Shown here: positions 5,266-35,595 of the stretch, in pieces | Numbering within the stretch: position 1 is the stretch's first letter | Layout of the letters: every line of letters starts with the position of its first letter | NCBI GenBank assembly: GCA_964475515.1 | Contig: CAYYWW010000001.1 | Span: forward strand, 12,611-52,255 | Source of the DNA: an uncultured archaeon | GTDB taxonomy: Archaea; Aenigmatarchaeota; Aenigmatarchaeia; QMZP01 | Length of the DNA: 39,645 nt | Direction: 5' to 3' | Translations under genes and position numbers: made by a program | The notes under the pieces: model-generated | Database searches by the model: none | The model's input: only the letters and a program-made list of their open reading frames with translations | Told to the model about the DNA's origin: nothing

Positions 5266-5407
5266 TGGGCTCGAGGGGATTTTCACATAAAAACGTGTTG
5301 AACCCCTGACCTTCGGCTTTTACGCCTTAGCTTGGCGGCCTTATAAGACCGACGCTGTAGTCTACCACTCCAATGGAGCGGATCTAACCAAGCTGAGCTA
5401 CGAGCCC
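5266..5407 (-). tRNA. tRNA-Ile(UAU), three-intron model
   Basis: Minus strand reads GGGCTCG-TA-GCTC-AGCTTGGTTA-GA[27 nt]GC-G-TCGGT-CTTATA[23 nt]A-GCCGA-AGGTC-AGGGG-TTCAA[17 nt]AT-CCCCT-CGAGCCC-A. After removing + coords 5356-5382, 5319-5341 and 5281-5297, a 75-nt cloverleaf forms with a perfect 7-bp acceptor stem and anticodon TAT. A TATA-like TTTATTAA lies about 30 nt upstream. No CCA is encoded. Confidence 0.75.
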
Positions 5408-5552
5408 ATATTTTTATGTTAAGATAACCTTTAATAAACATTTTAACATTGAATTAATAAACTCGTAAAATTTAAAAATAAGGATTATATATAAACTATA
5501 TAATTCCTTGAGTTCTATGGAATTTTTATCGTAAAATTAAGAGGTGATAAGA

Positions 5553-7193
5553 ATGACAAATGGACAGTTAGGCGGACAGCCTGTACTGATATTGCCAGAA
5601 GGCGCTATAAGGATGAGGGGTAAAGATGTGCTTAGAGCCAACATTGCCGCTGCAAAGGCTGTTGCCGATGCTGTCAAGACAACACTGGGTCCAAAAGGCA
5701 TGGATAAGATGTTAGTAGACAGCTTAGGTGACATTACCATAACAAATGATGGAGCAACTATTTTAGAGGAAATGCAAATAGAGAATCCAGCAGCAAAAAT
5801 GATGGTTGAAGTTGCAAAAACTCAGGATAAAATGGTCGGTGATGGTACAACAACAGCAACAGTTCTTGCAGGTGAATTACTCAAAAGAGCAGAAGATTTG
5901 CTTGAACAGGAAATACATCCAACAGTCATTACAAAAGGTTACAGGATAGCGAAGAAGAAAGCATTAGAAGTGCTTGATAAAATAGCAATAAATGTTGAAA
6001 TAACTAACGAAGATGTCTTGAAAAAAATAGCTCAAACAGCAATGACTGGCAAATCAGCGGAAAAGGCCAGTGAGGAACTTGCAAATATTGCCGTAGAAGC
6101 AATTAAAAAAGTTGCAAGAGTTGATGGGAATAGCGTGAGCGTGGATGTAGATGACATAAAAATAGAGAAAAAAGAGGGTGGGTCAATGAATGATACAGAA
6201 CTAGTAAATGGTATAGTGATTGACAAGGAGGTCGTTCACTCAGATATGCCAAAAACTGTGAAAAACGCCAAAATAGTTTTACTTGATTGTGCGTTGGAGA
6301 TCAAAGAACTTGAAGGTGATGCAAAGATAAATATAGACACACCGGAAAAAATGCAGGCATTTCTCGAGAGTCAGGAAAAATCATTAAAGGACATGGTAGA
6401 CAAAATAGTTAAGACAGGTGCTAATGTAGTGTTTTGTCAGAAAGGTATAGACGATGTTGCGCAGTATTACCTGGCTAAAAACGGTATACTAGCAGCAAGG
6501 AGGGTTAAAAAAAGTGATATGGAGAAACTTGCAAAGGCAACAGGAGCAAAAATAGTCAGTAATTTAAATGACTTAAATAAGAACGATCTTGGATCTGCAG
6601 GTTCTGTTAAAGAAAAGAAAATATCAGATGAAGAGATGATATTTGTTGAGGAGTGTAAGAAACCAAAAGCTGTGACGATCCTTGTAAGAGGCGGTACAGA
6701 GCATATAGTTGATGAGGTTGAAAGAGGCGTTGAAGACGCAGTAAAAGGTTTAGCAGCTGCTCTAGAGCTTGGAAAAATAGTAGCAGGTGGTGGAGCGTGT
6801 GAAATAGAAGTTGCAAAAGAGCTTAGAAAATACGCAGAGACGCTCAAAGGACGCGAACAGCTTGCAGTAAAGGCATTTGCAGATGCGGTAGAAGTAATAC
6901 CAAGAAGTTTAGCAGAAAACTCAGGACTTGACCCCATTGATGTGCTCGTTAGTTTGAGAGCAGAGCATGACAAAGGTAATGTACATCACGGGATTGACGT
7001 TTTTACAGGAAAATCTCAGGACATGGTAAAAACAGGTGTTGTAGAGCCTTTAAAAATTAAATTGCAGGCAGTGAAATCAGCAAGTGAGGCAGCAGAGATG
7101 ATACTGAGAATAGATGATATGATATCAGCAGCAAAGAGTGAGAAATCAGGACCAGGACCGTCGAGAGGTGGTCCAGGAATGGACGAATATTAG
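5553..7193 (+). CDS. ths: thermosome subunit (group II chaperonin)
   Basis: Motifs [35 protein letters not shown] and a C-terminal GGPGMDEY tail. GAGGTGA Shine-Dalgarno motif lies 5 nt before the ATG at 5553; the ORF-track GTG at 5544 sits inside that motif. Confidence 0.95.
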
Positions 7194-19791: not shown

Positions 19792-20110
19792 TGCCCCAGG
19801 AGGGATTTCCGTACGGCTTTTTATGGTAGCTTCCGCTTGCACAAAAAGCCGTAGAGCAAAAATACGCATTGAAGCGTATTTTTACATTTCTGCTCCACAG
19901 CTCTTTGTGGAAGTTGTTAACTCCTGTAAAGAGCTGTGCTTCGAACCCTCGACTTCCAGCTTTCTGCTCTTTCATAACCGTTTGTGACGGTTCAAATCTT
20001 CTAGTTGATTAGAAGGTTCACCGCAAGTGCTCTGGCACTTTAAACTTGGCTACTAAGTGATTTAACAATTCTAGTGTAGTAGCCAACCTATCCAACTGAG
20101 TTACTGGGGC
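19792..20110 (-). tRNA. tRNA, four-intron model; best fit tRNA-Arg(UCU)
   Basis: Minus strand has GCCCCAG...CTGGGGC-A acceptor, D arm ACTC-AGTTGGATA-G[48]AGT, anticodon arm CCAG[15]C-CTTCTA[48]A-GCTGG, variable AAGTC, T arm GAGGG-TTCGAA[134]T-CCCTC. Removing + coords 20040-20087, 20017-20031, 19962-20009 and 19806-19939 gives exactly 74 nt with all four stems Watson-Crick. TTTAAATA lies about 30 nt upstream. The acceptor, D and T arms are secure; the anticodon assignment depends on the 15-nt stem intron. Confidence 0.65.
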
Positions 20111-35504: not shown

Positions 35505-35595
35505 AGCCCCGTGGTGTAGTGGTCAAGCATGCGAGGCTCTGGTGGTATAAAGCCGGTGAAACCTCGCGACCGCGGTTCGAATCCGCGCGGGGCTA
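35505..35595 (+). tRNA. tRNA-Gln(CUG) with one canonical (37/38) 18-nt intron
   Basis: AGCCCCG-TG-GTGT-AGTGGTCAA-GCAT-G-CGAGG-CTCTGG[TGGTATAAAGCCGGTGAA]A-CCTCG-CGAC-CGCGG-TTCGAAT-CCGCG-CGGGGCT-A. The A1:U72 pair is typical of archaeal tRNA-Gln. Intron 35543-35560 pairs AGCC with GGCT of the anticodon region. A T6 run follows. Confidence 0.9.

Follow-up and report, generated by a model that had tools for sequence, protein, structure and literature searches.

A probable AUA-reading tRNA-Ile gene with three introns and a genomically encoded UAU anticodon in Aenigmatarchaeota

Results

The tRNA gene and its neighbours

We analysed a stretch of 39,645 nucleotides from an uncultured Aenigmatarchaeota archaeon (contig CAYYWW010000001.1), referred to here as the window. 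On its minus strand, at 5266..5407, lies a tRNA-Ile(UAU) gene with a 142-nt precursor, whose 5′ end is at 5407 and whose discriminator base, A73, is at 5266; the CCA is not encoded at its 3′ end. A TATA-box-like element, TTTATTAAA, assigned by its position, occupies 5430..5438 (−), which places it at −31 to −23 relative to the 5′ base of the tRNA. The thermosome (Cpn60/TCP-1) gene, at 5544..7193 (+), is a conserved neighbour by which the orthologues of the tRNA gene in other Aenigmatarchaeota can be recognised.

Read on the minus strand from 5407 to 5266, the letters are GGGCTCG TA GCTC AGCTTGGTTAG[27 nt]AGC G TCGGT CTTATAA[23 nt]GCCGA AGGTC AGGGG TTCAAC[17 nt]T CCCCT CGAGCCC A, with the three inserts given as lengths. 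Exon 1 (5384..5407, −) holds the 5′ strand of the acceptor stem (GGGCUCG), U8 and A9, the 5′ strand of the D stem and the D-loop through G22. It is followed by exon 2 (5341..5356, −), with the remainder of the D stem (AGC), G26, the 5′ strand of the anticodon stem (UCGGU) and the loop CUUAUAA, in which the UAU anticodon (positions 34-36) lies at 5343..5345 (−). Exon 3 (5297..5317, −) contributes the 3′ strand of the anticodon stem (GCCGA), the variable region AGGUC, the 5′ strand of the T stem (AGGGG) and the T-loop bases UUCAAC, and exon 4 (5266..5279, −) contributes U60, the 3′ strands of the T stem (CCCCU) and the acceptor stem (CGAGCCC), and A73.

Splicing in silico produced a 75-nt class-I cloverleaf with the loop CUUAUAA, the anticodon UAU and A73. 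By the class-I description of Rfam RF00005 it has a 7-bp acceptor stem, a 4-bp D stem, 5-bp anticodon and T stems and the GTTCRA loop; U8, A14, G18, G19, U33, A37, G53 and C61 are all there, and the T-loop is TTCAACT. Neither ARAGORN nor Rfam gave a match to the unspliced gene, as expected for three introns. An intron-tolerant search re-found it, with the arm TCGGT-CTTATAA-GCCGA and three inserts whose lengths are 27, 23 and 17 nt. An earlier note on this DNA had described a three-intron tRNA-Ile with a genomically encoded UAU, its CTTATAA loop seated on a TCGGT/GCCGA stem; the arm was recovered by this search, and the gene as a whole is borne out by the spliced cloverleaf together with the intron-lacking orthologues described below.

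As candidate isoleucine features the spliced tRNA has A73, C4:G69 and U12:A23. tRNA-Ile(GAU) has a gene of its own, at C39:1419-1537, whose anticodon stem is interrupted by an intron; this tRNA shares 76% identity with the UAU tRNA, as well as the acceptor sequence GGGCYCG. Plain similarity was tried as a guide to isotype and rejected, with Arg(UCG), Ile(GAU) and Val(GAC) scoring alike against the spliced UAU tRNA. Since similarity of this kind cannot sort isotypes, the isoleucine identity rests on the anticodon, A73, C4:G69, U12:A23 and logic.

Intron boundaries

We scored the bulge-helix-bulge (BHB) geometry for every possible junction pair at each insert. Intron 3 (17 nt, T-loop, 5280..5296, −), at 59/60, forms a strict hBHBh′ motif: the central helix UUCA/UGAA is paired 4/4 and flanked by 3-nt bulges, the 5-bp outer helix is the T stem itself, and the inner helix has 3 bp. 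Because a perfect bulge-helix-bulge for this insert exists only in the 59/60 register, the mature T-loop is UUCAACU. All three insert lengths given in the earlier note (27, 23 and 17 nt) therefore stand, but its T-loop register, which led to UUCAAAU, does not.

Intron 2 (23 nt, anticodon loop, 5318..5340, −) is placed at 38/39, with 37/38 giving the same product, in a relaxed BHB whose central helix UUAU/GUAA is paired 4/4 between symmetric AAG bulges, with a 3-bp inner helix and an outer helix that is offset by one nucleotide. Intron 1 (27 nt, D-arm, 5357..5383, −) is placed at 22/23, with 23/24 giving the same product, also with a relaxed and less clear fit to the BHB motif. Its central helix, GGUU/GACU, includes two G-U pairs, each flanking helix has only 1 bp before the bulge, and a 7-bp hairpin (CCGCUCC/GGAGUGG) lies inside the insert. 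The sites 22/23 and 59/60 are published non-canonical intron positions (PMC4090602).

Two frames with splicing endonuclease domains (PF01974) were found in the genome: a frame of ~199 aa with a single domain at C2:3711-3983 (−), scoring 101 bits, and a 396-aa frame with two domains at C4:31405-31884 (−). The intron-tolerant search located ~32 tRNA loci in the genome, most of which bear one to three similar inserts.

C34-modifying enzymes and CAU tRNAs

AUA might instead be decoded by a cryptic tRNA-Ile2(CAU) together with an unrecognised C34-modifying enzyme, which would leave the UAU gene redundant or minor. The search for TiaS tells against this. Its TiaS_FLD domain (PF08489) was absent from the source genome (0/1), from 40 relatives of the same family and order (0/41 for that set of genomes), from 201 genomes across the phylum, 92 of them of high quality, and from 12 more genomes reached through the loci. 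The kinase-like domain, TiaS_TCKD (PF22641), was likewise absent from the 41 genomes, and four archaeal control genomes were positive in each of these profile searches. With TiaS absent, the genome falls outside the TiaS/agmatidine system, in agreement with the earlier suggestion that a UAU gene goes with the lack of tiaS.

TilS (TIGR02432) gave no match above its 93.6-bit cut-off in the 41 genomes (0/41). The genome does encode PP-loop ATPases distantly related to TilS, which could be taken in favour of an alternative enzyme, but its own TIGR02432 matches reach 54 and 51 bits, far under the cut-off, and the same proteins score better on the TtuA and NcsA models. These two PP-loop thiolase paralogues, NcsA-like and TtuA-like (C36:6221-6805, +, and C14:7452-7979, −), are both far under the equivalog cut-offs.

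The presence of one CAU tRNA, at C14:20746-20889 (+) and outside the window, could also be counted in favour of a cryptic tRNA-Ile2(CAU); it is the sole one found in an 86%-complete assembly by a finder that allows one intron per arm. Its loop, CTCATAA, requires the removal of a 10-nt micro-intron at 31/32 and of a 60-nt intron after position 38, and the runner-up solution, with a UAU loop (CTTATGA), has a much poorer BHB. The acceptor of this tRNA, GCCCCUG, is Met-like and unlike the GGGCYCG of the isoleucine tRNAs, and its identity to the UAU tRNA is 69%, against 76% for tRNA-Ile(GAU). Judged from these letters, it looks like the elongator tRNA-Met. No credible match to a CAU anticodon arm with the stem directly beside the loop was present in the genome.

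Not every tRNA of the genome is covered: the assembly reaches 86% completeness, and neither a search for the AGCGGG acceptor nor a fuzzy search for GGGCUCAUAACCC turned up an initiator tRNA, which too leaves some room for a cryptic tRNA-Ile2(CAU). Rfam, ARAGORN, the intron-tolerant finder and motif searches yielded no initiator tRNA-Met in the source genome (G000) or in its relative G221, and the Met tRNAs of this lineage seem unusually hard to detect. One locus in G221 (L089, G221:C5:112219-112292) is tRNA-like, with an 8-nt anticodon loop CTCGATAA, an initiator-like GGG/CCC stem, U1:A72 and an Rfam score of 24 bits; possibly this is an initiator tRNA that is interrupted or atypical. For the UAU gene itself, conservation across the phylum in genomes of ~1 Mb would be unexpected if it were redundant. 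Taken with the TiaS and TilS results, this makes decoding by a cryptic tRNA-Ile2(CAU) improbable, and we prefer decoding by the UAU tRNA.

Orthologous loci

The closest relatives of the window's thermosome gene are all labelled Aenigmatarchaeota, and no fewer than 11 other Aenigmatarchaeota genomes have the same tRNA adjoining this gene, with intron numbers that range from zero to at least four. The L015 orthologue has no intron at all; ARAGORN calls it tRNA-Ile(tat) and Rfam scores it as a tRNA at 76.5 bits. L013 has D-arm and anticodon introns without the T-loop intron, and L001 has D-loop and T-loop introns with the anticodon arm unbroken. Altogether, the D-arm intron is missing from L002, L003, L008, L014 and L015, the anticodon intron from L001 and L015, and the T-loop intron from L013 and L015, so that every intron of the window gene is missing from at least one orthologue, where the flanking exons join as predicted. 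The exon 1 sequence, for instance, is unbroken in L002, L003, L014 and L015. The boundary of intron 1 is thus backed by the orthologues that lack it and also by a related 21-nt intron at the same site in L013, which carries a relative of intron 2 as well (GGCC.GCCAA...CGUAAAA). An additional intron lies within the anticodon stem of L007 and L009, as read partly by hand.

The tRNA-Ile(UAU) gene is always found immediately upstream of the thermosome gene; relative to the latter it points one way in the window, L001, L002, L009 and L013 and the other way in L003, L004, L006, L007, L008 and L014, and these flips between genomes suggest repeated small inversions. At L006 (JAFCEK010000041.1, 2599-2896, +) a hand reading seems to require the removal of five introns (D-loop, D-stem, anticodon stem, anticodon loop and T-loop), which would top the usually quoted maximum of three; the L004 orthologue has more than three introns as well.

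For the covariation analysis we used ten orthologues after splicing, including a single Woesearchaeota sequence, and excluded L004, L006 and L008. The solver, which allows one intron per arm, mis-solves L004, L006, L007 and L009, and L007 and L009 were parsed by hand. Across the ten, 99.5% of the cells are paired, compared with 86.7% in shuffles, none of which was as high (0/500), and sliding the partners lowered the pairing to at most 53%. Changes on both sides occur at 8 pairs, 3 of them in the anticodon stem, while the loop CTTATAA is invariant and the anticodon unchanged in 10/10. The covariation count leans towards structure, since the intron-containing genes were spliced either by hand or with a solver that demands pairing; L015 and the unbroken arms of L001 and L013 are free of this solver bias. 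A chance origin of the cloverleaf is excluded by the pairing of the orthologues relative to the shuffles and by the intron-free orthologue.

A different splice register would give a different anticodon; moving both junctions of intron 2 two bases to the left, for example, would yield UAA (Leu). Several registers are possible in principle, since this intron begins and ends in runs of A, and the offset outer helix of its BHB leaves the fit short of strict. One-base shifts, however, yield an identical product, and the AAG/AAG bulges around UUAU/GUAA set the cuts that give the loop CUUAUAA. The same loop stands without any intron in the unbroken anticodon arms of L001 and L015 (NNNGU-CUUAUAA-GNNNN), and because these arms are uninterrupted the UAU anticodon is free of any splice model. 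The 5-nt variable region, moreover, is incompatible with a tRNA-Leu. An alternative register, which had been named beforehand as a way in which the anticodon assignment might fail, is on these grounds very unlikely, and the UAU reading stands.

Distribution across the phylum

A signature that spans the D stem, nucleotide 26, the anticodon stem and the start of the loop, GAGCRNNNGTCTTATA, was present in 109 of the 201 phylum genomes and in 69 of 119 genera, and its reversed control in ~10 genomes. The count of 109/201 is a minimum: any gene interrupted by an intron within the signature, as the window's own is, escapes the match.

Outside the phylum, TiaS_FLD was missing from eight genomes labelled Woesearchaeota or Nanoarchaeota, one of which is a closed chromosome of 1.84 Mb. 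A tRNA-Ile(tat) gene, split by a canonical intron, is present in one of the eight (G217). A looser pattern, AGCRNNNNNCTTATAA, was tried in the Woesearchaeota/Nanoarchaeota genomes and set aside, as its matches were mainly coding-sequence noise with one true tRNA.

Use and meaning of AUA

In the 505 long ORFs, AUA accounts for 55.2 per 1000 codons, which ranks it third among codons, and for 60% of the isoleucine codons, so the earlier impression that AUA is very frequent in this AT-rich coding sequence was right. Such demand bears on the possibility that the locus is a decaying, insertion-riddled and unexpressed tRNA pseudogene. Standard finders do miss the gene, and three insertions in 75 nt are many, as decay might produce. 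Yet all stems are intact, the changes in the orthologues are compensatory and not random, and the gene is conserved phylum-wide; most tRNAs of the genome carry one to three similar introns, splicing endonuclease genes are encoded, and the TATA-like box lies at −31 to −23. The third commonest codon would, in addition, be left without any other decoder that we found. We give the pseudogene explanation very little weight and take the gene to be a working one.

To see which amino acid AUA stands for, we aligned the thermosome with five non-DPANN homologues. Its AUA codons fall opposite Ile at 59%, Val at 22% and Met at 3%; the profiles of AUU and AUC are the same as that of AUA, and AUG aligns with Met at 61%. 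As AUA aligns with isoleucine like AUU and AUC, and unlike AUG, it means isoleucine. A reassignment of AUA (to Met, for example, as in some mitochondria), with a UAU tRNA charged with something other than isoleucine, has nothing beyond the unusual decoder in its favour and is, given this profile, hardly credible.

Discussion

Nearly all bacteria and archaea read AUA by means of a modified C, and why they avoid U in this role is a long-standing question. The locus at 5266-5407 (−) is, in our judgement with a probability of about 90%, a functional gene for the AUA-reading tRNA-Ile of an Aenigmatarchaeota archaeon, interrupted by three BHB-type introns and independent of TiaS and TilS. That the gene points to a different strategy of AUA decoding had been proposed before, and the absence of TiaS and TilS, the UAU loop of the intron-less orthologues and the demand for AUA all support this proposal.

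Under this reading the precursor would be transcribed and its introns would be cut out of the D-arm (22/23), the anticodon loop and the T-loop (59/60) by the tRNA splicing endonuclease, consisting of the single-domain and the two-domain protein. An RNA ligase would then join the exons to a 75-nt tRNA with the genomic UAU anticodon, which IleRS would be expected to charge. Because neither TiaS, which makes agmatidine, nor TilS, which makes lysidine, is present, a CAU tRNA could not become the AUA reader and the UAU tRNA would read AUA directly. Its U34 would pair with the A of that codon, a mode of reading that has been shown in Mycoplasma mobile and proposed for the archaea Nanoarchaeum equitans and Korarchaeum cryptofilum.

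A tRNA-Ile(UAU), also called tRNA-Ile3, has been described in N. equitans and K. cryptofilum, the two archaeal species in which tRNA-Ile2(CAU) and TiaS are reported to be missing (PMC8450103, PMC6000648, PMC3895270). The literature that we searched names only these two, which fits the earlier remark that a genomic UAU tRNA-Ile is known from a few lineages. Likened by the published descriptions, the Aenigmatarchaeota system shares with theirs a genomic UAU on an Ile-type class-I tRNA, the lack of TiaS and a separate tRNA-Ile(GAU), and the tRNA-Ile(UAU) gene of K. cryptofilum bears an intron too (PMC6000648). It differs in that the trait is on the scale of a phylum (with TiaS missing from all 201 genomes and the signature present in at least 109 of them) and occurs in one Woesearchaeota genome besides, that AUA is here the dominant isoleucine codon, and that the gene has three introns, two of them non-canonical.

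In M. mobile, decoding of AUA by an unmodified U34, a Trp-to-Arg change in IleRS and rejection of AUG by the ribosome were shown experimentally (PMC3575796). What its tRNA-Ile2(UAU) shares with the present one is that a U34 tRNA reads AUA without a C34-modifying enzyme, in an AT-rich and reduced genome; the M. mobile system is, however, bacterial and experimentally shown, whereas that of Aenigmatarchaeota is archaeal and predicted from sequence.

The introns also have precedents. Multi-intron tRNA genes are described from Thermoproteales and from ARMAN-type DPANN (Sugahara et al., 2008, cited in PMC4090602; PMC5829648), with up to three BHB or relaxed-BHB introns at sites that include 22/23, 59/60 and the anticodon loop, as here; such genes co-occur with broad-specificity splicing endonucleases. 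In our case the lineage is Aenigmatarchaeota and the endonuclease set is a single-domain and a two-domain protein. Disrupted tRNAs in DPANN had been anticipated (PMC5829648). The yeast tRNA-Ile(UAU) gene likewise has an intron beside the anticodon, which Pus1 needs for the formation of pseudouridine at 34 and 36 (PMC4090602). The anticodon intron of Aenigmatarchaeota is, in contrast, missing from some orthologues, and since L001 and L015 do without it an obligatory intron-dependent modification is unlikely. We therefore set aside a yeast-like, intron-dependent pseudouridylation as a general route.

Decoding by the UAU tRNA leaves a problem of fidelity. U34 mutants of the haloarchaeal tRNA-Ile misread AUG; these variants carry cnm5U and bind AUA better than AUG and AUG better than AUU (PMC3895270). 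Because of this misreading the problem persists for a U34 tRNA, and several devices might hold it down in Aenigmatarchaeota: rejection of AUG on the ribosome, as in M. mobile; competition by Met-tRNA; the weak U31-G39 pair; or a modified U34, for example one that the NcsA-like enzyme has 2-thiolated (s2U34). All ten orthologues (10/10) have U31-G39 as the closing pair of the anticodon stem, as do 75 of the 84 pattern matches obtained with that position unconstrained; those that deviate are concentrated in one or two families, and A31-U39 stands at this place in the genome's tRNA-Ile(GAU). The relevance of U31-G39 to decoding is speculation.

Both UAU decoding and multi-intron tRNAs are already known kinds, and the novelty is one of lineage and scale. 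Our literature search, in which subscription journals were thinly covered, found nothing that links DPANN, Aenigmarchaeota or Woesearchaeota to the loss of TiaS or to a tRNA-Ile(UAU). What emerges is a whole sampled phylum without TiaS, along with some TiaS-less Woesearchaeota genomes, one of which has the UAU tRNA. More than 100 natural UAU tRNA sequences, intron-bearing and intron-free, become available for probing how A is told from G.

Tentatively, the combination of a U34 tRNA-Ile and no TiaS could go back to the ancestor of much of DPANN, or to very early in its history, and be no oddity of N. equitans, with AUA as the main isoleucine codon and the fidelity towards AUG secured by an undescribed device of the tRNA or the ribosome; we hold this broader picture to be possible but rather doubtful. 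It may span all Aenigmatarchaeota and at least some Woesearchaeota and Nanoarchaeota. The U31-G39 pair or NcsA-like 2-thiolation of U34 are possible parts of such a device.

For annotation, the consequences are immediate. Standard finders miss the tRNA-Ile(UAU) gene and most other tRNAs of Aenigmatarchaeota genomes, and automated annotation of Aenigmatarchaeota MAGs will therefore wrongly list AUA, and many other codons, as having no decoder. The anticodons given by ARAGORN with the -i option were rejected as a guide, being often wrong (they include Pro, Pyl and Thr for genes that read as Gln, Thr or Ile in the BHB register), and a listing of GC-rich islands proved too noisy as a tRNA finder.

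Some other tRNA loci were noted along the way. The tRNA-Asp(GTC) locus at G000:C42:3781-3959 has a run of N, masked or withheld letters, within what would be a long intron. In the window, ARAGORN calls the locus at 35505-35595 (+) Pro(TGG) with introns disallowed and Pyl(CTA) with introns allowed, and its BHB register gives Gln(CUG), a reading that fits the neighbouring gatD/gatE; the locus illustrates how little standard anticodon calls can be trusted in this genome. At 19793-20110 (−), which corresponds to G000:C1:32402-32720, lies a multi-intron tRNA gene of 319 nt with a possible CTTCTAA loop (Arg UCU) and a T-loop insert of 134 nt.
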